From an uncultured Heliomicrobium sp. (GTDB taxonomy: Bacteria; Acidobacteriota; Blastocatellia; RBC074): 40,763 bases of DNA. Below are positions 7,969 through 40,763 of this stretch, piece by piece. A program made the translations under genes and the position numbers. Below the pieces are notes generated by a model that saw only the letters and a list, made by a program, of their open reading frames with translations, had not been told where the DNA came from and searched no databases. Each line of letters starts with the position of its first letter. Within the stretch, counting starts at the first letter, position 1. The stretch is from NCBI GenBank assembly GCA_964639915.1, contig CAZXHW010000001.1, positions 1-40,763 of the forward strand, written 5' to 3'.

Positions 7969-8271
7969 TCAGGCGGTGGTGGTCTTCGTTTCTTTCTTTT
8001 CGCTCTTGTCGGTTTTATCGGGCTTGTCAGCTTTTTCGGGTTTGTCGGTCTTTTCTACCTTGTCTGCTTTATCAGTCTTATCGGTTTTGCCCGGCTTGGC
8101 ATAATCGCTGACATACCAACCGGAACCTTTTAGCTGAAAGCTGGTCTGCGAAAAGATTTTTTCCAGCTTGCCTTTGCATTCCGGACATTTGCTCAGCGGC
8201 TTGTCGCTCATCTTTTGCATGACTTCCAGATGGTGACCGCATTTCTGACAAACGTATTCGTAAATTGGCAT
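7969..8271 (-). CDS. FmdB-family zinc-ribbon protein with a Lys/Asp/Thr-rich repeat tail
   Basis: MPIYEYVCQKCGH...KCPECKG is the CxxC_CxxC_SSSS signature. The tail is KTDKTDKADKVEKTDKPEKADKPDKTDKSEKKETK. Confidence 0.85.
   Translation of the reverse strand: MPIYEYVCQKCGHHLEVMQKMSDKPLSKCPECKGKLEKIFSQTSFQLKGSGWYVSDYAKPGKTDKTDKADKVEKTDKPEKADKPDKTDKSEKKETKTTTA
7972..8100 (-). repeat. Imperfect 9-12-nt in-frame tandem repeats encoding the K-x-D-K low-complexity tail
   Basis: Repeated cttgtc / tttgtc / ttatc-ggt units are visible on the + strand at 7990-8095. Confidence 0.7.
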
Positions 8272-13967: not shown

Positions 13968-13986
13968 TTTGCCCCCTTTGAAAAAG

Positions 13987-14059
13987 CATGCAGTACCGTC
14001 TTTAGGCGGAATATGTTTTTCTACCTCCAAAACCTTCCGCCTAAAGGCGGTACTACATG
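13987..14059. repeat. 24-nt-arm inverted repeat (REP-doublet-like) in the divergent Crp / ECF-sigma promoter region
   Basis: CATGCAGTACCGTCTTTAGGCGGA (13987-14010) matches the reverse complement of TCCGCCTAAAGGCGGTACTACATG (14036-14059) at 22 of 24 positions. The right arm contains its own mini-hairpin, CCGCC-TAAA-GGCGG; the left arm carries a degenerate copy, CCGTC-TTTA-GGCGG, with one mismatch. Confidence 0.6.
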
Positions 14060-14159
14060 TTTTTCGCCGCTGTTGATTAACGCGACAGTTGCGGGTAAAA
14101 ACTGGCACGTTAAACAAAGTTTTTTTCTCTCCCGCAAATAAATTTCCGAGCTTCAATAA

Positions 14160-14726
14160 ATGGACGTGCCTGCTTCCAATCAGATCACGGAGCAGTTGAT
14201 TGCCTGGAGCAATGGTGATCAATCGGCGCTGGTTGAAATCGCTCCGGTCGTTTACCGCGAATTGCGGCAAATGGCCGACCGTTTTTTGCGCCACGAAGCC
14301 GCCGGTCATAGCTTGCAACCGACTGCTCTGGTTCATGAAGCCTGGCTGCGGCTGGCTGACCAGACTCGCGTCAACTGGCAAAACCGCTCACAGTTTTTCG
14401 GCATTGCGGCTCAGATGATGCGCCGGATTCTGGTGGATCACGCCAAAACCAAACACCGCGAAAAACGTGGCGGCGACGCGATCAAACTTTCGCTGGACGA
14501 CATCATCAATTTGTCCGGTGAACGCGCGGCTGATTTGGTGGCTCTGGATGAGGCTCTGGATGCGCTGCAAAATTTCGACTCAAGAAAATGCTCCGTTGTC
14601 GAGCTTCGTTATTTTAGCGGGTTGAGCGTGGAAGAAACCGCCGAAGTTCTGGAAGTTTCGCCCGACACGGTTATGCGCGATTGGAAGCTGGCCAAAGCCT
14701 GGTTGTATCAACAGCTAAAGAAGTGA
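14160..14726 (+). CDS. ECF-type RNA polymerase sigma factor (the ECF family typically paired with Ser/Thr kinases)
   Basis: The N-terminus ITEQLIAWSNGDQSALVEIAPVVYRELRQMADRFLRHE...LQPTALVHEAWLRL and region 4 (LSVEETAEVLEVSPDTVMRDWKLAKAWL) fit this family. Confidence 0.85.
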   Translation: MDVPASNQITEQLIAWSNGDQSALVEIAPVVYRELRQMADRFLRHEAAGHSLQPTALVHEAWLRLADQTRVNWQNRSQFFGIAAQMMRRILVDHAKTKHREKRGGDAIKLSLDDIINLSGERAADLVALDEALDALQNFDSRKCSVVELRYFSGLSVEETAEVLEVSPDTVMRDWKLAKAWLYQQLKK

Positions 14727-14731
14727 ACCCA

Positions 14732-17620
14732 ATGACGCCTGAAAAGTGGCAACAGATCGAAGCCTTGTTTCATTCGGCGCTGGATCGTCAGCCAAACGCG
14801 CGAGCCGCGTTTTTGCGTGACGCCTGCGGCGAAGATTCCGCCTTGCGCGATGAGGTTTGGCGCTTGCTGGATTCTTATGACGAAGCAGGCGAATTCATCG
14901 AACAGCCGTTACTGGAAAATTCAGCCAACCCCGCCGAGCCGATCATTGGCCAGAAAATCGGCGGCTACGAAATTCAATCCTTGCTGGGCGCGGGCGGAAT
15001 GGGCGAAGTTTATCTGGCCCGCGACGCCAAACTGGACAGGCCAATCGCCCTGAAATTATTGTCGGCTCAATTCACCCGCGACGTCGGGCAGGCGCTGCGA
15101 TTTGAACGCGAAGCCCGCGCGATTGCGGCGCTCAATCATCCGAACATCATCACCATTTACGAGATCGGCCAGGACGGCGACCAACACTTCATCGCCACCG
15201 AACTGGTCACAGGGCAAACGCTGCGCGAAACGATCAACGCCGGAAAACTGGAACCGCGCCAGGCCGCCAACATCGCCGCTCAAATCGCCAATGCGCTGGC
15301 GGCGGCTCATTCGGCGGGAATCATTCACCGCGACATCAAACCAGAAAACGTGATGGTCAGGCCGGATGGCTTGGTCAAACTTCTAGACTTTGGATTAGCT
15401 AAGCCAACCGGGTTGCGGATTGCGGATTGCGGATTGCGGACTGAAGCGGATGGGGGATTTAAGATTGAAGATTGCGGATTACGGATTGAAGACCACTTTC
15501 AAAATCCGCATTCCGCAATCCGCAATCCGCAATCGTACACAGATCCGAAGGCGCTGATGGGAACGCTGGCTTATTTGTCGCCGGAGCAGACTCGTCAAGA
15601 AGAGTTGGACGCGCGCACAGACATTTTTAGCCTCGGCGTTGTGCTTTACGAAATGCTGGCGGGAATTCGTCCGTTCAAAGGCGCAAACGCCGCCGAAGTT
15701 TGCGAAGCCATTTTGAACCGCGAGCCTGAAGCCTTGCCCAACTTTCCGGATGCCTCCGCAATGTCGTTCATCGTCAAACGCGCTTTGATGAAAGACCCAG
15801 CGCATCGCTACCAAAACGCCGCAGAGTTTCGCGCCGACTTGCTGCAAGTGGAGCAAGCGCAACAGCAAGCTCCGGCCAGACGCGGCAAAAGTTTGGCCGT
15901 CGCGGCGGCATTCTTTCTGTTGGCAGCTTTGGGCGTTTGGATTTGGCAATCGTTCAACGGGCGACGAAACTCGTTCAATTCAGCCGCCGCGCAAAAACTG
16001 ACCACCTTTCCAGGACAGGAACTTTTCCCCAGCATTTCGCCCGGCGGCCAAAGCGTCATTTTCGCCAGCCGTCACAACGGCAGCATGGACATTTACCGCC
16101 AGACGGTCGGGACTAAATCAATCATCAATCTGACGGAAAATCGTCCAGGCGCAGAAATTCAACCGGCGTTTTCTTTTGACGGCAAACGAATCGCGTTTCG
16201 GCAGTTGCACGAAGGCAACGGCGGAATCTTCGTGATGGACAACGACGGCGGCAATCTCGAACAAGTGACCGATGTCGGTTTCAACCCGGCCTGGTCGCCG
16301 GATGGCAGCGAAATCGCCTTTGCTGACGACATCATCTGGGATTACGAAGGCCGTAACACTTACCCCAGCGCCAGCCGTTTGTGGGCTGTGAACCTGAAAA
16401 CTCGCCAGCGCCGCGTGATTTCCGAACGCGACGCAGTTCAGCCGAACTGGTCTCCGAACGGCCACAGGCTGGCTTTTTGGGGAGAGCAACAAGGCGGTCA
16501 CCGCGACATTTGGACTGTCGCAGCCAACGGCGGCGAACCGACACCTGTGACAAACGATGAACACATTGACTGGAATCCGGTCTGGTCCCCGACGGGAGAA
16601 CATCTTTATTTTCTGAGCAATCGGGGCGGCGAAATGAATTTGTGGCGAGTGCCGATTGACGAACGCACAGGCCGGTTGCTGGGCGCGCCAGAACCGGCGA
16701 CTTTGCTGTCTAACAATTGCCAGCATTTCAGTTTCGCGCGCGATGGCCGCAGCCTGGTTTACGGCCAACAAACACGCACGGAAAACCTGTGGCAAATCGG
16801 CTTCGATCCCGTCAATGAACAGGTCGTCGGTTCGGCGTTGCCAATGACTCAGAGCCTGAAGCGGTACGCCCAGTTTTCTTTGTCTCCGGATGAAAAGAGT
16901 TTCGCTTATTTGGGGCGAGGCGAACCTCAGCAGGATTTGTTCACTGCCACAATAACCGGCGCGCCGCTGCAGCGGCTGACAGACGACGCGGCTCAGGACA
17001 TCATTCCTCGCTGGTCGCCCGCTGGCGACTGGATCGCCTTCCTTTCCGACCGTGGCGGCAAATATGAAATCTGGAAAATCCGCCCCGACGGCAGCGGCCT
17101 GTCGCCAATGACTCACGAACCCGGCAAAGAAGTCATTGCGCCGGTTTGGTCGCCGGATGGAAAACGGCTGGCCTATCAAATTCGCAACACCAACGCCGTT
17201 GTCATTGACGCCACGCGGCCCGGCGCTGAGCAGGTTTCACAAGCCTTGGGCGGCGAACAACCTGAAGGCTTTTTGCCCTGGGAATGGTCGCCCGACGGAA
17301 CGACGCTGGCGGGTTGGCAACCTCCGCGTTTGAAACAGCAGGAACGCGGAATTGTTCTTTACTCGTTCGCTCACCAACGCTACGAACAATTAACCCGCAC
17401 GGGGTTTTATCCCACATGGCTGAACGACAGCCGGCGCTTGCTGTTCAGAGAAGGCAACGAACTGTTTCTGCTCAACCGACAAACCGGCCAAACGAAAAAG
17501 ATTTATTCGGTCAATCTGCCCAACCAGCTCAGCCATTGCCTGATTTCGCGCGACAACCAGCGGCTTTATTTCACTACCGTCAGCGCCGAAGCCGACATTT
17601 GGCTGCTGACTCAAAAATGA
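14732..17620 (+). CDS. Transmembrane Ser/Thr protein kinase with an extracytoplasmic TolB-like PD40 beta-propeller
   Basis: The kinase motifs are GAGGMGEV, IALK, HRDIKPEN, DFG and SPE. The TM segment is LAVAAAFFLLAALGVWIW. At least 8 PD40-like units are present (PAWSPDGSEIAF, PNWSPNGHRLAF, PVWSPTGEHLYF, PRWSPAGDWIAF, PVWSPDGKRLAY and others). The start lies 5 nt after the sigma gene stop. Confidence 0.9.
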   Translation: MTPEKWQQIEALFHSALDRQPNARAAFLRDACGEDSALRDEVWRLLDSYDEAGEFIEQPLLENSANPAEPIIGQKIGGYEIQSLLGAGGMGEVYLARDAKLDRPIALKLLSAQFTRDVGQALRFEREARAIAALNHPNIITIYEIGQDGDQHFIATELVTGQTLRETINAGKLEPRQAANIAAQIANALAAAHSAGIIHRDIKPENVMVRPDGLVKLLDFGLAKPTGLRIADCGLRTEADGGFKIEDCGLRIEDHFQNPHSAIRNPQSYTDPKALMGTLAYLSPEQTRQEELDARTDIFSLGVVLYEMLAGIRPFKGANAAEVCEAILNREPEALPNFPDASAMSFIVKRALMKDPAHRYQNAAEFRADLLQVEQAQQQAPARRGKSLAVAAAFFLLAALGVWIWQSFNGRRNSFNSAAAQKLTTFPGQELFPSISPGGQSVIFASRHNGSMDIYRQTVGTKSIINLTENRPGAEIQPAFSFDGKRIAFRQLHEGNGGIFVMDNDGGNLEQVTDVGFNPAWSPDGSEIAFADDIIWDYEGRNTYPSASRLWAVNLKTRQRRVISERDAVQPNWSPNGHRLAFWGEQQGGHRDIWTVAANGGEPTPVTNDEHIDWNPVWSPTGEHLYFLSNRGGEMNLWRVPIDERTGRLLGAPEPATLLSNNCQHFSFARDGRSLVYGQQTRTENLWQIGFDPVNEQVVGSALPMTQSLKRYAQFSLSPDEKSFAYLGRGEPQQDLFTATITGAPLQRLTDDAAQDIIPRWSPAGDWIAFLSDRGGKYEIWKIRPDGSGLSPMTHEPGKEVIAPVWSPDGKRLAYQIRNTNAVVIDATRPGAEQVSQALGGEQPEGFLPWEWSPDGTTLAGWQPPRLKQQERGIVLYSFAHQRYEQLTRTGFYPTWLNDSRRLLFREGNELFLLNRQTGQTKKIYSVNLPNQLSHCLISRDNQRLYFTTVSAEADIWLLTQK
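15413..15532. repeat. 120-bp heptad-based palindromic element lying in frame inside the kinase gene
   Basis: (TTGCGGA)x4 at 15413-15440 is complementary at 27 of 28 positions to the (TCCGCAA)-type array at 15505-15532. The spacer consists of further GATTnnn heptads. The element spans exactly codons 228-267. Confidence 0.85.
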
Positions 17621-17699
17621 CGAACTGGCGCTTTTGGCTGCACGTTAAACCGTGTGCTAAATTCCACCGCGTTAATCCGGTTTTATTTGAGGAGTTAGT

Positions 17700-18656
17700 T
17701 TGATCACCACCACAACGAATCGCCTCGGCGAGCTTCAACAAACCATCGAAAGTGTCATTCGCGGCAAATCGGAAGCCGTGCATCTGGCGATTGTCACGTT
17801 GCTGGCTGGGGGTCATTTGCTGGTCGAAGACGTGCCCGGCGTAGGCAAAACGACATTGGCGCAAACCATTGCCCGCGCAATGGATTGCAGCTTTCAGCGA
17901 ATCCAGTTCACCAGCGATTTGCTGCCTACGGATATTGTTGGCGTTTCGATTTACAACCAGCATTCCGGTGATTTTGAATTCAAACCCGGGCCGATTTTCG
18001 CCAACATCATCCTGGCGGACGAAATCAACCGCACAACGCCCAAAACCCAAAGCAGTTTGCTGGAAGCAATGGCCGAAGGCCGCGCCACCATCGAAAATCG
18101 AACGTACGATCTTCCCCGCCCTTTTCTGGTGCTGGCCACGCAGAACCCGATTGAACACCACGGAACGTACCCGCTGCCTGAATCGCAACTGGACCGATTT
18201 CTGATGCGCGTGCGAATGGGGTATCCATCCATCGCCGAAGAAAAAGAAATCCTGCGCCAGCATGCGGCGCTGCCCAATCACCATCCGCTGGAAGACGTCC
18301 GGCCGGTTATGTCCGGCGACGAAGTCATGGATTTGCAGGAAGAGGTAAAAAACGTTCGTGTTGACGATACGCTGCTGGATTATCTGATGGAAATTGTTGC
18401 CGCGACCCGCAGTTCTGAAATGCTGGAATTGGGCGTCAGCCCGCGCGGTTCGCTGGCATTGCACCGTGCGGCCCAGGCGTTGGCATTTACCGAAGACAGG
18501 GCCTATTGCATCGCCGACGACATCAAACGACTGGTCGTTCCGGTTTTTGCGCATCGCGTTGTCATCAGCCCGCGCTATTCCAACCGTCATCGCACGGAAA
18601 ATGCTGCCGAAACAGCACTGGCTGAAATCCTCAAAACCGTCCGCGTTCCAATCTAA
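17700..18656 (+). CDS. MoxR-family AAA+ ATPase
   Basis: Walker A is VPGVGKT and Walker B is ILADEINR. ATQNPIEHHGTYPLPESQLDRF is typical of MoxR. The TTG start has GAGGAG 7 nt upstream. Confidence 0.9.
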   Translation: MITTTTNRLGELQQTIESVIRGKSEAVHLAIVTLLAGGHLLVEDVPGVGKTTLAQTIARAMDCSFQRIQFTSDLLPTDIVGVSIYNQHSGDFEFKPGPIFANIILADEINRTTPKTQSSLLEAMAEGRATIENRTYDLPRPFLVLATQNPIEHHGTYPLPESQLDRFLMRVRMGYPSIAEEKEILRQHAALPNHHPLEDVRPVMSGDEVMDLQEEVKNVRVDDTLLDYLMEIVAATRSSEMLELGVSPRGSLALHRAAQALAFTEDRAYCIADDIKRLVVPVFAHRVVISPRYSNRHRTENAAETALAEILKTVRVPI

Positions 18657-18658
18657 TT

Positions 18659-18741
18659 CCGGATTTTGAATTTTGGATGCTGAGGTCCACACCTGATTGC
18701 ATTCTTAAATTCAAAACCCAGAATTCAAAATTCAAAACCGG
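18659..18741. repeat. Inverted TTTTGAA/TTCAAAA heptad element in the MoxR-DUF58 gap
   Basis: CCGGATTTTGAATTTT (18659-18674) matches the reverse complement of AAAATTCAAAACCGG (18727-18741) apart from one indel. Additional TTCAAAA units start at 18710, 18724 and 18731. Confidence 0.6.
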
Positions 18742-20067
18742 ATGCTGACCTTCCTTCGACCCAAAAAATCACCTCGATTCGTTTTCGTCACAGCTTTGCT
18801 GACCGGCATAGCTGCGCTAACTGCGATCATCGGCGGCATCGCAGGCCAGCTCGGCAAATATGAATTTGCGGCAATTAGCTCCAGAATCGCCTTGGGACTG
18901 GCGGTGATTGTGATGCTGTATGTTTTGCCACGGCTTTTTCTAAGCGTCCAATGGCGGTCAAATTATGCAGCGCATGTTCCCAATGCCGGGCTGATTTTCG
19001 GCGCGGTCATTTTGCTGGTCACGGTTCTGGCACTGACCAGCGGAAACAACCTTCTGTATGTAGTGCTGGCAATTCTGCTGGCAACGATGATTGTTTCCAT
19101 AGTGTCAGCGCGCATGAATTTGCACCGTATGACGCCTTCCATTCGCTACCCCGGCCATATTTTTGCCGGCGAATCCGTTCCCTTTGAAATCACGCTGAAA
19201 AGCGAAAAGCGGTTTCTGCCTTCATTTTCCCTGTCCGTTGATTTGGTGGAAGAGCGTAAAGCGCCAAGCGAAGAATCGAAACCTGCACAGCAACATGCTG
19301 TTGCATTGAGCTATTTTTCTCTTATTCCGGCGCGGTCATTTGGCCGAAGCGTGATCGAACGGCGTTTTGACCGGCGCGGCGTTTATCCTGTTACCGGATT
19401 TCTGATCAACACAGGGTTTCCGTTTGGATTTGTCGAACAACGGCGCTTTTTTGAATGGTCGGGCGAAATCATCGTCTATCCTCAGCCGGAACCGATTGAT
19501 GATTTCGCGCATCTGTTGCCATTGGTAGCCGGACAGCTTGAAAGCCGGGTTAAAGGAACCGGCAGCGATTTGCACGGCATTCGGCCGTATCTGGCCAGCG
19601 ATCATCATCACCACATTGACTGGAAAGCAACCGCCAAAACTCAGCAAATGATGGTTCGTGAATTCACGCGCGAAGATGATTGGCGAATTACGGTCATTTT
19701 CGATTCACAAACTGACGGGCAACTTGCCAATGAAACCGAGGCAGCGGAACAGTTTGAACGCGCCATCACCTTTGCCGCCAGTTTGTTATCGCATTTCATC
19801 AATCTGGGGGGCGAGGTGCGATTGATGACGATCGGCTGCGACACAGGGTTCGGCACCGGCCAGCCGCATTTATTTGAAATGCTCAGGCAATTGGCCCCAC
19901 TTGCTCCGACCAAGCCGGAAGAAAGAGAATTGCAGACGGAAAAACAACGGATGGGAAGTTTTCAGATTTTGATCACTCCGAATCGCGGCGCTTCTGCCTT
20001 GTCGAACGGTTCCATGACTCAGGTCGTCTATTTCGACGAATTGAGCCGCGCGAGTAGTTTGCAGTAA
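18742..20067 (+). CDS. DUF58-domain protein with N-terminal TM helices
   Basis: The DUF58 signature context is GTGSDLHGIRPYLASDHHHHIDWKATAKTQQMMVREF. It lies directly after MoxR, which is the canonical partner position. Confidence 0.8.
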   Translation: MLTFLRPKKSPRFVFVTALLTGIAALTAIIGGIAGQLGKYEFAAISSRIALGLAVIVMLYVLPRLFLSVQWRSNYAAHVPNAGLIFGAVILLVTVLALTSGNNLLYVVLAILLATMIVSIVSARMNLHRMTPSIRYPGHIFAGESVPFEITLKSEKRFLPSFSLSVDLVEERKAPSEESKPAQQHAVALSYFSLIPARSFGRSVIERRFDRRGVYPVTGFLINTGFPFGFVEQRRFFEWSGEIIVYPQPEPIDDFAHLLPLVAGQLESRVKGTGSDLHGIRPYLASDHHHHIDWKATAKTQQMMVREFTREDDWRITVIFDSQTDGQLANETEAAEQFERAITFAASLLSHFINLGGEVRLMTIGCDTGFGTGQPHLFEMLRQLAPLAPTKPEERELQTEKQRMGSFQILITPNRGASALSNGSMTQVVYFDELSRASSLQ

Positions 20068-22976: not shown

Positions 22977-23037
22977 GACAGGATTTACATGATTTTTCAG
23001 GATTGTGTGAATCCTGAATCATCCTGCAAATCCTGTC
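22977..23037. repeat. Nested palindromic CAGGATT/AATCCTG element, copy 1
   Basis: The outer arms are GACAGGATTT (22977-22986) and AAATCCTGTC (23028-23037). The inner hairpin is CAGGATT-GTGTG-AATCCTG (22998-23016). It lies between the fadB-like stop and the DJ-1 start. Confidence 0.7.
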
Positions 23038-33115: not shown

Positions 33116-33147
33116 TCAAAATCGAGCCAACCAAGATTGAGACATAA

Positions 33148-33245
33148 TTTTTAGACAGGATTTTCAAGATGTTTCAGGATTGGCAAAAAGAATCTTGCTG
33201 TCTGGTGAATCATAATCTTGAAAAATCCTGCTCATCCTGTCTAAA
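33148..33245. repeat. Palindromic CAGGATT/AATCCTG element, copy 2 (13-bp perfect terminal inverted repeat)
   Basis: TTTTAGACAGGAT (33148-33160) is the exact reverse complement of ATCCTGTCTAAAA (33233-33245). The first 29 nt from GACAGGATT match copy 1 at 26 of 29 positions. It lies between convergent coaA and the GT2 gene. Confidence 0.75.
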
Positions 33246-33260
33246 AGTTTTGTGCTCCGA

Positions 33261-38032: not shown

Positions 38033-39727
38033 TCAATGATGTTCCAGCTTAATCAGGTGAACCATCACGTCACCGACGCCGGAAATTTTGGTGACCTTAT
38101 TGGCGTCGTCTTTGGCAACAGTTACCGGAATCGCGGAATGTTTGGCGATCAAATCGCGTATTGTGCGTATTTGCTCCGGGTCGGTGATTTGGCCCTTATC
38201 CTTGGGATTTGCCAGTGATTTAACAATTTCAAGTTCCGGCAACCGCTTAGACGACCAAATCAGCCAAAGTTTCTCAGTTCCCTGGTCCTCATCGAAAACA
38301 AAACCATCGCCAATTGTCGGGATATTGATTTGTTGATTCGCGCCAAGTTCCGATTTGTTGTCGTTGGCCGTCGGCGAAGGAAACAGCGTGACGTATTCGG
38401 GCAAGCCATTCACTGGCTCTGGCGACTCGTTGATGATGTACAGGGAACCTTGCTGCGCCGCGCTGACATTGAACTGGACATGATAATCGTCCTCGAAAAC
38501 GACTTCGCTCGCCAGCCTGAAAGGAGCTTGATACGGTTTGTTATCGCGGTATTTCTGCACCATCACCCAATAACTGAAAGCAGGCTTTGCCACTACTGGG
38601 TCAACAATGTCAGGCGGCTTTTGTTTCGTAAACAGCCACGCGGCAATGGCAACGACGGCGATCACCGCTGCAACGGCAACCCATTTCAATGGCGAACCCG
38701 CCGGTTTTCCATCCGTACGGATTTTGGTTTCGTCCAGTGCCGTCTGACGCGCTTCGGCGGAACCTGTTGCGTTGTCATAGCGCATTGTCGGAACCATCGA
38801 ATCTACCGACTTTCCTATCGGACGCTGTTCCCCTGTTAATGCAGCAGCCAAATCTTCGGCAAATTCCTGAACCGTTTTGTAACGATCTTCGGCATTAAAC
38901 GATAGCGCTTTCAGCAAGGAGGCTTCGGCAGTTTCAGTCAAATTTCCGCGAAGTTCTCTGGGTTTGACGATTGCGCCTTCGCGTTGCATTTCGTAAAGGT
39001 CAACTGCCGAACCGGCTTTGAAGGGTGGACGCCCGGTCAGCATTTCGTACGCGACCGCGCCAAGCCCGTAAATGTCGCTTTCAGCAATCGGCTTGCCGCG
39101 CAACTGTTCCGGAGCCATATACGGCGGAGTTCCGGCAATCCAGGTGACTTCGACATTCGTGGCGACTTCTGAATCTTTGATGCGCGCGACGCCAAAATCA
39201 ATCAGCTTTATCTGCTGACGACCGCCTCCGACTTCTTCCAGCATGATGTTTTCGGGCTTCAGGTCTCGATGATAAACGCCCTTTTCGTGCGCGGCAGCCA
39301 AAGCTTCGCCCATTTGCCGAACGATGGCAGCCACGCGATCAAAATCCATGCCTTGCGGAATCATCGCCGAACGCAGCGTGTTGCCTTCGACAAACTGCAT
39401 CACCAGAAAGGGTTTGCCGTCAGGCATTGCGCCCGTATCCAGCACGCCCACCACGCCGGGATGGTTGATGCGCGCCAGCGCTTCCATCTCTTGTTTGAAC
39501 TTCTTCTGAAACCATAAATCGTACCGATCATCGCCGCGTTCCGCGATCAGAACTTTGATCACTACCGCGCGATTCAGCAATTGCCGGTCACGCGCCAGAA
39601 AGACCAACCCTAATCCGCCTTTGCCAAGCACGCGCTCAATCAGATACCGATCTTTCAGTACCAATCCTAGATAATCGGTCGAAGAGATCGCTTCACCCAG
39701 CGTTGAAGAGGTATTTTCGTTGTCCAT
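38033..39727 (-). CDS. Transmembrane Ser/Thr protein kinase with a C-terminal DUF4384-like extracytoplasmic domain
   Basis: The kinase motifs are GKGGLGLV, VVIKVL, HRDLKPEN, DFGVAR and GTPPYMAPEQ. The TM segment is WVAVAAVIAVVAIAAWLF. The C-terminus, with GSLYIINESP...LFPSP...EKLWLIW, resembles DUF4384. The start is the ATG at 39727. Confidence 0.85.
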   Translation of the reverse strand: MDNENTSSTLGEAISSTDYLGLVLKDRYLIERVLGKGGLGLVFLARDRQLLNRAVVIKVLIAERGDDRYDLWFQKKFKQEMEALARINHPGVVGVLDTGAMPDGKPFLVMQFVEGNTLRSAMIPQGMDFDRVAAIVRQMGEALAAAHEKGVYHRDLKPENIMLEEVGGGRQQIKLIDFGVARIKDSEVATNVEVTWIAGTPPYMAPEQLRGKPIAESDIYGLGAVAYEMLTGRPPFKAGSAVDLYEMQREGAIVKPRELRGNLTETAEASLLKALSFNAEDRYKTVQEFAEDLAAALTGEQRPIGKSVDSMVPTMRYDNATGSAEARQTALDETKIRTDGKPAGSPLKWVAVAAVIAVVAIAAWLFTKQKPPDIVDPVVAKPAFSYWVMVQKYRDNKPYQAPFRLASEVVFEDDYHVQFNVSAAQQGSLYIINESPEPVNGLPEYVTLFPSPTANDNKSELGANQQINIPTIGDGFVFDEDQGTEKLWLIWSSKRLPELEIVKSLANPKDKGQITDPEQIRTIRDLIAKHSAIPVTVAKDDANKVTKISGVGDVMVHLIKLEHH

Positions 39728-39755
39728 AAGAACAATGAGAGTTTGGGAAACGCGC

Positions 39756-40763
39756 CTATGCCGCTTCCCGGATTCCAGCCTTCGCGGCTTCGATAAAGGC
39801 GCGCGCATTTTCCACCGGAACCATCGGCATAATTCCATGGCCCAAATTCATAATGTGACCAGTCGGACCGGCCTTTTTCAGAATTTCCCGAACGCCTTCG
39901 CCAATGGTTTCCGGCGTGCCGAGCAGCGCACAAGGATCCAGATTTCCCTGCAAAGCAAGATTGTCGAACCCGGCTGCTTGCAACCGTTTATTCGCTTCAG
40001 CGATGTCAATTCGCCAATCCAGGCTCAGAACGTTTGCGCCGGATTCGGCCATTTTTTCCAGCACAGCACTGCAACCGTTGACGTACAAAATCGCCGGAAC
40101 GCTCAAGCCGCCAGGACCACGGTGCAGCCGTGAGAAAATCCGCTGGTAATATTCCAGCGCAAACTCTTCAAAATCATCGGCTGACAATTCACCCGCCCAC
40201 GTGTCGAACAGTTGCACAACCTGTGCTCCGGCTTCGATCTGAGCGTTCAGATAATCGGTGACTGTATCGGCGATCTTTTCCAGCAATTGATGAAGCAGCG
40301 CCGGATTGGCGTACATCATTCGTTTGATTTCCACGAAGTTGCGCGAAGTGCCGCCTTCGATCAGGTACGAAGCCAGCGTGAATGGCGCTCCGGCAAACCC
40401 AATCAGCGGCGCGCGATTGTCCAGTTCCTGCCGCAACAATCGGATCACGTCCATCACAAAGCCAGTTTTTTCCACAGGGTCCGGCACAATCAGCTTTTCA
40501 ACCTGTTCCGCCGTTCGAATCGGCGTTTCGATCACCGGCCCACGGCTTTCAATAACATCCAGCTTGACGCCCATCGCTTCAACGGGGATCAGAATATCTG
40601 AAAACATAATCACCGCGTCCACACCCAGAATGTCGAACGGCTGCATGGAAACTTCCGCCGCCATTTCCGGAGTCTTGCACAGCGTCAAAAAATCCGTTTT
40701 GCCGCGCACCGCGCGGTATTCAGGCAAGTATCGGCCAGCTTGCCGCATCATCCATACCGGAGC
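39756..40763 (-). CDS. hemE: Uroporphyrinogen decarboxylase (N-terminus truncated by the window end)
   Basis: The frame is open to the window end. APVWMMRQAGRYLPEYR is the classic HemE N-terminal motif, and the remainder is collinear with HemE. Confidence 0.9.
   Translation of the reverse strand, partial: APVWMMRQAGRYLPEYRAVRGKTDFLTLCKTPEMAAEVSMQPFDILGVDAVIMFSDILIPVEAMGVKLDVIESRGPVIETPIRTAEQVEKLIVPDPVEKTGFVMDVIRLLRQELDNRAPLIGFAGAPFTLASYLIEGGTSRNFVEIKRMMYANPALLHQLLEKIADTVTDYLNAQIEAGAQVVQLFDTWAGELSADDFEEFALEYYQRIFSRLHRGPGGLSVPAILYVNGCSAVLEKMAESGANVLSLDWRIDIAEANKRLQAAGFDNLALQGNLDPCALLGTPETIGEGVREILKKAGPTGHIMNLGHGIMPMVPVENARAFIEAAKAGIREAA

Follow-up and report, generated by a model that had tools for sequence, protein, structure and literature searches.

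Inverted arrays of a heptameric repeat lie in frame in the activation loop of an ECF-linked Ser/Thr kinase

We analysed a stretch of 40,763 nucleotides (hereafter the window) of an uncultured Heliomicrobium sp., placed by GTDB in the Blastocatellia of the Acidobacteriota (assembly GCA_964639915.1, contig CAZXHW010000001.1, forward strand). A palindromic element of 120 nt built of heptads, at positions 15413-15532, lies in frame in the activation loop of a Hanks-type Ser/Thr kinase whose gene adjoins that of a sigma factor of the extracytoplasmic function (ECF) type. This element is one local instance of heptameric arrays and G-arm-first palindromes that are widespread in Acidobacteriota, Planctomycetota, Verrucomicrobiota, Chloroflexota and other phyla. 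It is an inverted pair of heptameric simple-sequence arrays, is probably self-propagating repeat DNA tolerated in a permissive loop of the kinase, and most likely has no dedicated function.

A heptad palindrome in frame in a kinase gene

The perfect left arm (left arm A, 15413-15440) is a (TTGCGGA)4 array coding for LRIADCGLR, and faces the right arm, TCCGCAT followed by (TCCGCAA)3, at 15505-15532, which codes for a SAIRNPQ-type peptide; all parts of the element are given on the plus strand. Between the two arms, 27 of the 28 positions (96%) can pair. Of the 64 nt between them, the first part is a short linker, CTGAAGCGGATGGGG (15441-15455), which leads from the perfect to the degenerate left array and is conserved in the related loci L001, L002 and L211. 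It is followed by five degenerate heptads of the GATTnnn type (left arm B, 15456-15490: GATTTAA, GATTGAA, GATTGCG, GATTACG and GATTGAA), which are an alternative partner of the right arm (25/32 pairing), and then by GACCACTTTCAAAA (15491-15504), the apical loop of the inner hairpin. The homologous apical loops of L002, L005 and L006 are 13 nt long.

Tandem Repeats Finder reported a period of 7 at 15409-15488 (11 copies) and at 15503-15534 (4.6 copies). A two-unit probe, TTGCGGATTGCGGA, with at most two mismatches allowed, gave 9 matches in the 40.7-kb window against 0.88 expected, 8 of them in the kinase element, and none of 100 shuffled controls reached 9 matches. The predicted RNA fold of 15400-15545 has a free energy of −63.9 kcal/mol (z = −7.0). 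The arm geometry and the GATTnnn spacer given in a preliminary description of this DNA were thus confirmed in the sequence, and the stem of about 28 bp that it expected in the mRNA is predicted to be a strong one.

The 120 nt make 40 in-frame codons, as had been described; counted from the ATG at 14729 these are codons 229-268, and not 228-267. None of the six frames of the TTGCGGA heptad contains a stop codon, and a block of three units is as long as seven codons. As 7 and 3 are coprime, the cyclic peptide is identical in all frames of a strand: LRIADCG for one, SAIRNPQ for the other. Adding or losing three units (21 nt, 7 codons) therefore leaves the reading frame intact. The DFGLA codons, GATTTCGGnTTGGC, were considered as the seed of the array and rejected: the likeness of CGGTTTG to CGGATTG is real, but the codons lie 12-14 nt upstream and leave the other heptad types unexplained.

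The host gene (14729-17620, plus strand) encodes a protein of 962 aa, whose homologues carry PF00069 and PF07676, among others; its closest homologues are found in metagenome-assembled genomes (MAGs) of Blastocatellia and Pyrinomonadaceae, and it is P0121 in the homologue set. Read from the N-terminus, the protein presents a three-helix domain, the kinase domain, a long helix that is predicted at residues 390-411 and, at the C-terminus, a PD40/TolB-like beta-propeller. The kinase domain is PknB-like (E = 2e-53) and presents the HRD, DFG and (A/S)PE motifs. Together with the ECF sigma gene next to it, present both here and in those syntenic loci that were examined, these features identify it as an ECF-linked Hanks-type kinase. 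The activation segment starts at the DFG codons GAC TTT GGA (15386-15394) and ends at the SPE codons, the APE equivalent (15578-15586), both on the plus strand. In agreement with the preliminary description, the DFG-to-SPE distance is 67 residues here; for the second kinase, encoded at 38033-39838 on the minus strand of the window, it is 31.

The alignment to solved PknB structures splits at the element, with query positions 158-198 (protein residues 227-267, 41 residues) opposite about 5 PknB residues; the element is therefore an insertion relative to canonical kinases. In an AlphaFold2 model made with a 35-sequence alignment (mean predicted local distance difference test score, pLDDT, of 82), pLDDT falls below 50 only at residues 227-274, which are modelled without secondary structure, and the rest of the kinase domain is confident. 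The element is thus predicted to lie in a disordered loop on the protein surface, upstream of the P+1 loop. Outside the loop, the ratio of nonsynonymous to synonymous divergence (dN/dS) is 0.10-0.27 versus three orthologues, and the host gene is therefore under purifying selection.

On its 5' side, the kinase gene adjoins the gene of the ECF-type sigma factor (14160-14726, plus strand; from the list of open reading frames, with PF07638 in orthologues). The longest kinase reading frame, from the TTG at 14681, overlaps the end of this sigma gene. A Sigma70_ECF domain was found at the equivalent position in the syntenic loci L001, L002, L005, L128 and L130.

Heptad arrays across phyla

With a (TTGCGGA)3 probe, heptad arrays were found in at least 119 contigs, including contigs of Acidobacteriota, Planctomycetota, Verrucomicrobiota, Chloroflexota, Gemmatimonadota and Bacteroidota, and in 58 viral contigs, some of which have 6-7 co-oriented arrays per ~9-13 kb. 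Among the matches listed, to which all counts of arrays, clusters and TTGCGGA pairs in this text refer, arrays range from about 2 to about 21 units in genome and viral contigs. Single arms make up 104 of the 140 array clusters and inverted pairs the other 36. The 32 palindromic copies have the arms alone in common; between the arms they have unrelated sequences of 11-190 nt.

Gene context in the scanned contigs was assigned by open-reading-frame logic and ten Pfam checks. Where context was examined, most of the arrays were found at gene borders; in a Pyrinomonadaceae MAG, for example, three palindromic copies lie within 8 kb, each bordering long open reading frames. Additionally, we found (TTGCGGA)n in frame inside the Pfam domains ABC_tran, GlnRS, IleRS-like, UvrA (twice), MnmE, PAD_porph and Pkinase; in TruB and HypF it lies next to the domains or between them. 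These in-frame hosts, among them an agmatine-deiminase-like protein and the activation loop of another kinase, come from unrelated phyla (L051, L090, L086, L099, L048, L126, L124, L112, L123, L122 and L047). A stop-free heptad array can thus reside in the catalytic domain of a gene under selection, and in UvrA, tRNA synthetases and ABC ATPases of other phyla as well.

The gene cluster of the kinase holds a second, weaker heptad palindrome of the GATTTTG/CAAAATC type (18662-18737), in the spacer between the MoxR and DUF58 genes. It belongs to the same class and has the intergenic position usual for such elements. A hairpin occupies this spacer in all syntenic loci (L001, L002, L005, L128, L130 and L211), with a different sequence in each.

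Two kinds of heptad-derived peptide were seen within single proteins: an open reading frame of L009 codes for GTEEQRN/SLRLSAS as well as SAIRNPQ, and one of L086 has ITNYELQ adjoining SAIRNPQ. Different heptad families therefore co-occur in one gene. Two phage-like contigs, L250 (481-7172) and L247 (IMG/VR), were seen to carry 4-6 (GGATTGC)n arrays per ~9-13 kb, one of about 21 units. These arrays have a single orientation in L250 and both orientations in L247, and several lie ~15-35 nt upstream of an ATG.

Resizing and exchange of the loop among related kinases

Among 118 full-length homologues, the DFG-to-SPE segment is mostly 39-45 aa long, about one sixth being longer, and the element is absent from 83% of the first homologue set. 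The preliminary description had proposed selfish or structured DNA rather than an evolved loop, and had suggested an alignment of orthologous kinases as a check. A segment of repeat-structured DNA is supported; the 40-residue insert is absent from most homologues, and the syntenic orthologues share the heptad in resized form.

The window shares with L001, L002 and L005 the gene order Crp-like regulator, sigma factor, kinase, MoxR, DUF58 and transglutaminase. The identical heptad stands at the identical site in the kinases of L001 (92% protein identity), L002 (84%) and L005 (68%), and loop lengths are 67, 60 and 53 aa, in steps of exact 21-nt blocks. In the DNA alignment, the right arm of the window is 21 nt (3 units) longer than in all five closest relatives, so that the 28-bp stem is a recent state of the window lineage; it is missing from L001 because three right-arm units are missing there. 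Likewise, 21 nt (3 units) of left arm B are present in the window and L001 and missing in L002 and L211. L211 has a 15-nt unit three times in its loop, and L212, the protein of which falls into one 90% cluster with that of L002, presents a scrambled loop of 45 aa. In about 200 homologues and the strain variants within 90% clusters, length differences are of 21, 15 or 45 nt or are swaps of whole cassettes, and all of them are in frame.

The fold follows these changes, with z of −6.4 in the window, −3.1 in L001, −2.4 in L002 and −1.6 in L212, and stem strength among close relatives spans z from −10.7 to −1.6. The element at the kinase site is thus inherited vertically in the syntenic orthologues and resized in place, and the perfect 28-bp stem is the product of a recent three-unit expansion of the right arm, not a conserved structure. 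Two other explanations of the loops were considered. That the 42-aa baseline loops are decayed hairpins is not supported, as they have no excess folding (mean z −0.5), apart from a few such as P0010 and L006b, which resemble remnants. Assembly artefacts were rejected, as the long loops recur in independent assemblies and samples (P0002 in 4 contigs, P0123 in 11, the P0109 cluster with 24 members) and follow the phylogeny.

Besides being resized, the loop is replaced as a whole. In L130 (6816-7022) and L174 (4102-4287), flanking DNA is 94.2% identical on one side and 97.7% on the other, and the palindromes between the identical borders are unrelated: a cassette of 127 nt with a GGATTGC unit in L130 versus one of 106 nt with a GGGAGAG-rich unit in L174. 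Comparison of the window with L002 gave an identity of 0.49-0.82 upstream of the loop, over ~1.3 kb that take in the sigma gene and the N-lobe, and of 0.89-1.00 over 3 kb downstream of it, against a genomic background of ~0.88. The cluster is in this sense a mosaic, the sigma gene and N-lobe (14100-15400) being ~69% and the C-terminal part of the kinase with MoxR (15400-18500) ~95% identical to L002. Third-position identity between the two rises from 0.5 to 0.93 in the alignment bins spanning the left arm, and the recombination junction lies within ~60 nt of left arm A. In the pair L130 and L134, the cassette is inside an island of high third-position identity (0.85-0.94) with more diverged flanks, which is the pattern that short-patch transfer would be expected to leave. 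These indications of recombination derive from a small number of metagenome contigs compared in pairs. One protein site can thus cycle through unrelated palindromes between near-identical strains, coincident with recombination junctions.

A further palindrome, with 30-nt arms that are 90% complementary, was observed at 13982-14064, between the genes of the Crp-like regulator and the ECF sigma factor. It lies close to the left edge, itself poorly resolved, of the block in which the window and L002 are highly diverged. The spacer between the kinase and MoxR genes holds a near-perfect palindrome with a stem of ~60 bp in the distant syntenic relatives L128 (11842-12129) and L130 (9105-9306).

Readings of the element and known repeat systems

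Considering that the element is probably tolerated, self-propagating repeat DNA, its persistence in a functional gene would have two grounds: the heptad is free of stops, so that three-unit changes are silent for the frame, and the loop that receives the insert is predicted to be a disordered surface loop that tolerates it. The orthologue comparison suggests that unit number shifts by replication slippage and that selection passes the in-frame steps. The identity profiles point to short-patch homologous recombination as the probable route by which whole loop cassettes are transferred between related kinases, for which the strongly conserved HRD..DFG and SPE flanks would provide the homology. 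The kinase would thereby have a longer activation loop that is floppy; the DNA and mRNA would form a strong hairpin locally, and the gene would be fragile and prone to recombination at that point.

Several observations weigh against this reading. The aligned loop is no more diverged than the gene average, with identities of 94.6% versus 91.9% to L001 and of 93.3% versus 87.4% to L002, and loop DNA is less diverged than synonymous sites (dS ~0.3), which suggests that some constraint may act on the loop or that it may have been exchanged recently. Heptad-type peptides, scanned for by 5-mer motifs, occur in the activation loop of 37 of the 203 family members and nowhere else in the ~950-aa protein, yet the kinase has other disordered linkers. 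At identical borders, four different heptad palindromes are found in relatives of P0109 that share 89-94% identity outside the loop, with the peptide signatures GLRIADCG/SAIRNPQ, GEWGVGS/PHSPLPT, GTERQRD/SVSQSLR and RERESER/SPALPLS; the conserved 42-aa baseline loop is kept in other P0109 relatives.

To these is added the polarity of the arms. All 36 inverted TTGCGGA pairs (L009-L127) have the order [TTGCGGA]n, spacer, [TCCGCAA]n, and none the reverse. Palindromes of other heptad units are G-first in 9 cases and C-first in none, and those of viral contigs (L213-L270) G-first in 4 and C-first in none. An independent search for stems gave 46 G-first heptad stems versus 4; the exceptions, and the zero-skew cases listed with them, mostly have units balanced in G and C, and one of these cases is no heptad array. 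Ordinary stems present a mild bias (416 versus 305, 58% G-first). All decidable heptad palindromes, i.e. those with arms of unequal G and C content, carry the G-rich arm first. As arm order is unchanged by strand inversion, the polarity is an intrinsic property, and in its strictness it is not predicted by plain slippage. Polarity, restriction to a single site, low divergence of the loop and four palindromes at one border are hints of a site-specific or polar generating process, or of selection. The strict polarity in particular points to an unrecognised generating mechanism or a selective filter.

Such a process is the core of an alternative for which these observations speak, and which we hold to be possible and on balance unlikely: the activation-loop linker would be a hotspot at which a polar process repeatedly makes or exchanges a G-rich array, a spacer and a C-rich array, the shared arrays, free of stops and neutral for the frame, serving as portable homology for in-frame recombination. 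As candidate processes one may speculate on a fold-back of the nascent G-rich strand, or on a hairpin-induced break healed by the addition of heptads to both 3' ends. Recombination of diverged kinases in the middle of the catalytic domain would then shuffle sigma/N-lobe modules against C-lobe/sensor modules, and one process would explain the in-frame arrays in housekeeping proteins across phyla. If this were true, repeat palindromes would act to shuffle the modules of signalling proteins in bacteria.

That the palindrome is a discrete selfish element, transposed in frame in many copies by element-specific machinery, appears doubtful to us. In favour of such an element are the dispersal of the arms over many genomes and over phage-like contigs, where they may number 3-7 in 8-13 kb, the invariant arm order, which fits terminal inverted repeats, and the exchange of whole palindromes between near-identical genes. 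The in-frame copies in many conserved proteins moreover resemble the Rickettsia palindromic elements (RPE), to which the preliminary description had likened the kinase element. RPE, attributed to work of Ogata and colleagues in 2000, reportedly form families with a conserved full-length consensus and are said to be restricted to Rickettsia. The likeness is substantial: a stable palindrome of ~100-150 nt lies in frame in a functional gene, its peptide stands in a surface loop with the fold kept, and many host proteins are affected. The difference, as RPE are described, is that copies of the kinase element share the heptad arms only, with no full-length consensus, are resized by unit slippage, and are found in many phyla in a mostly intergenic setting.

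A discrete element is also at odds with the absence of a conserved core among the 32 palindromic copies, given their unrelated spacers, with the preponderance of single arms among the clusters, and with the fact that even the 92% orthologue fails to conserve the 120-nt unit; size changes among the orthologues are in-place unit slippage. No second copy lies within the 40.7-kb window. No target-site duplication was found at 15413 and 15532, where ...CCAACCGGG on one side and TCGTACACAG... on the other have no direct repeat in common, and no transposase gene was found within 10 kb in nine related loci. For the same reasons the element departs from MITEs (miniature transposable elements with inverted repeats): the inverted arms are present, but neither the target-site duplication nor a conserved internal sequence nor, in the nine related loci, a parent insertion sequence was found. 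Repetitive extragenic palindromes (REP), bacterial interspersed mosaic elements (BIME) and MITEs, such as the GTAG-tagged REPs (PMC3733652), are likewise small hairpin-forming intergenic repeats that may mark sites of recombination or mRNA stability. The kinase arms differ from REP and BIME in being variable-number tandem heptads, with neither a GTAG/CGTC tag nor a conserved hairpin sequence, and no REP-associated tyrosine transposase (RAYT) or other transposase was evident in the regions examined.

The element belongs instead to the class of heptameric simple-sequence repeats, and to neither the RPE nor the MITE family. It has tandem 7-nt units in at least 3-4 copies, and the arrays are dispersed with variable unit number in relatives, in the at least 119 contigs and in the 58 viral ones. 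The short tandemly repeated repetitive (STRR) heptamers of cyanobacteria are tandem 7-nt repeats of this kind. Rehm et al. 2015 (PMC4692102) describe GGGNATC heptamer repeats of Xanthomonas and Nostoc, and heptameric simple-sequence repeats as over-represented in bacteria and little studied. The likeness of the arrays to GGGNATC and STRR heptamers lies in the tandem 7-nt units, typically of ~4 copies, dispersed mostly near gene borders and variable in number. In contrast to the GGGNATC repeats described there as forming G-quadruplexes, the TTGCGGA unit has GG only and no G-tract, forms a pair of inverted arrays and is in frame within a catalytic domain. Units related to GGGNATC do occur in kinase loops of relatives, GGGGAGT in L128 and GGGGATT in L007, and these have the G-tract.

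Selection for a nucleic-acid structure, either an element of mRNA processing, stability or pausing in the sigma-kinase operon or a DNA joint for in-frame recombination of modules, is in our view just as doubtful as a discrete selfish element. It would account for the presence of some hairpin at the kinase site in many relatives despite sequence turnover, and likewise between the MoxR and DUF58 genes; the loop DNA that is more conserved than synonymous sites and the confinement of heptad peptides to the activation loop agree with it as well. So do the coincidence of junctions with the loop (window versus L002) and the high-identity island at the cassette (L130 versus L134), but these junctions may just reflect the conserved HRD..DFG and SPE flanks as homology. 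Most homologues do without the element, with baseline loops that have no excess folding, and the 28-bp stem is missing in the 92% orthologue. Since stem strength is not maintained among close relatives, a conserved RNA function is unlikely. A scan of 14100-18800 against Rfam returned sub-threshold matches to microRNA precursors only, of the kind given by generic hairpins, and a scan for terminators and promoters made no prediction at the heptad element.

It is very unlikely that the insert is an adaptation at the protein level, with the longer activation loop tuning autoinhibition, autophosphorylation or partner recognition and the repeat DNA as mere mutational source. Expanded loops do recur in many family members with catalytic motifs intact, and the insert stands between DFG and the conserved TDPxxLMGT segment, by analogy the phospho-acceptor part, so that its length could affect regulation. 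However, the cassettes are alike in low complexity alone (GLRIADCG/NPQSAIR, GEWGVGS/PHSPLPT, RERESER/SPALPLS), DNA palindromy is conserved and protein sequence is not, the insert is predicted to be disordered, and loop lengths vary from 45 to 112 aa without pattern. Plasmodium proteins, kinases included, have low-complexity inserts in loops of conserved domains, which stem from AT-rich codon repeats and are not palindromic. These inserts are similar in that slippage-prone repeat DNA gives tolerated, fast-evolving, non-globular loop inserts, and differ in being eukaryotic, built of AT-rich codon repeats and without a palindrome, which the kinase element has.

Least probable of all is the phase-variation switch of the preliminary description, in which the kinase would be put out of frame when a single heptad slips, so that the ECF sigma/kinase pathway is switched ON and OFF within the population: the arithmetic stands, as the unit is not a multiple of 3, unit number varies between relatives and a change of one or two units in either arm leads to stops at codons 234-303, and two homologues (P0122, annotated partial, and P0008, on a contig of 2,978 nt) begin at or just downstream of the loop, which may reflect heterogeneity or assembly breaks, but each perfect tract has just 4 units and is in the middle of the gene, not close to its 5' end, the host lineage is free-living in soil, and no out-of-frame allele was found among the ~200 homologues and the strain-level variants. 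Phase-variable contingency loci of host-adapted pathogens share with the kinase element a non-triplet unit inside an open reading frame, such that one-unit slippage would switch the protein off; the difference is that only triple-unit changes have been fixed here.

Searches of the literature with the exact DNA and peptide strings gave no relevant match, and no description of the element was found in literature on heptanucleotide palindromes of Acidobacteria, on STRR and small dispersed repeats or on RPE-type in-frame repeats. The polarity rule, the in-frame occurrences and the cassette turnover were not found in the literature searched, including the available part of PMC4692102. Heptad arrays of this class represent a broad, RPE-like route to the expansion of protein loops outside Rickettsia, and their hairpins are probably a cause of broken metagenome assemblies and of errors in gene calling.

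Elsewhere in the window, two intergenic palindromes of one family, at 22977-23037 and 33142-33253, are built of (C)AGGATT/AATCCT(G) units and have the GGATT core in common with the kinase heptad. An 18/36-nt tandem repeat, CTTGTCGGTTTTATCGGG, is present in ~4.7 copies at 8005-8088.

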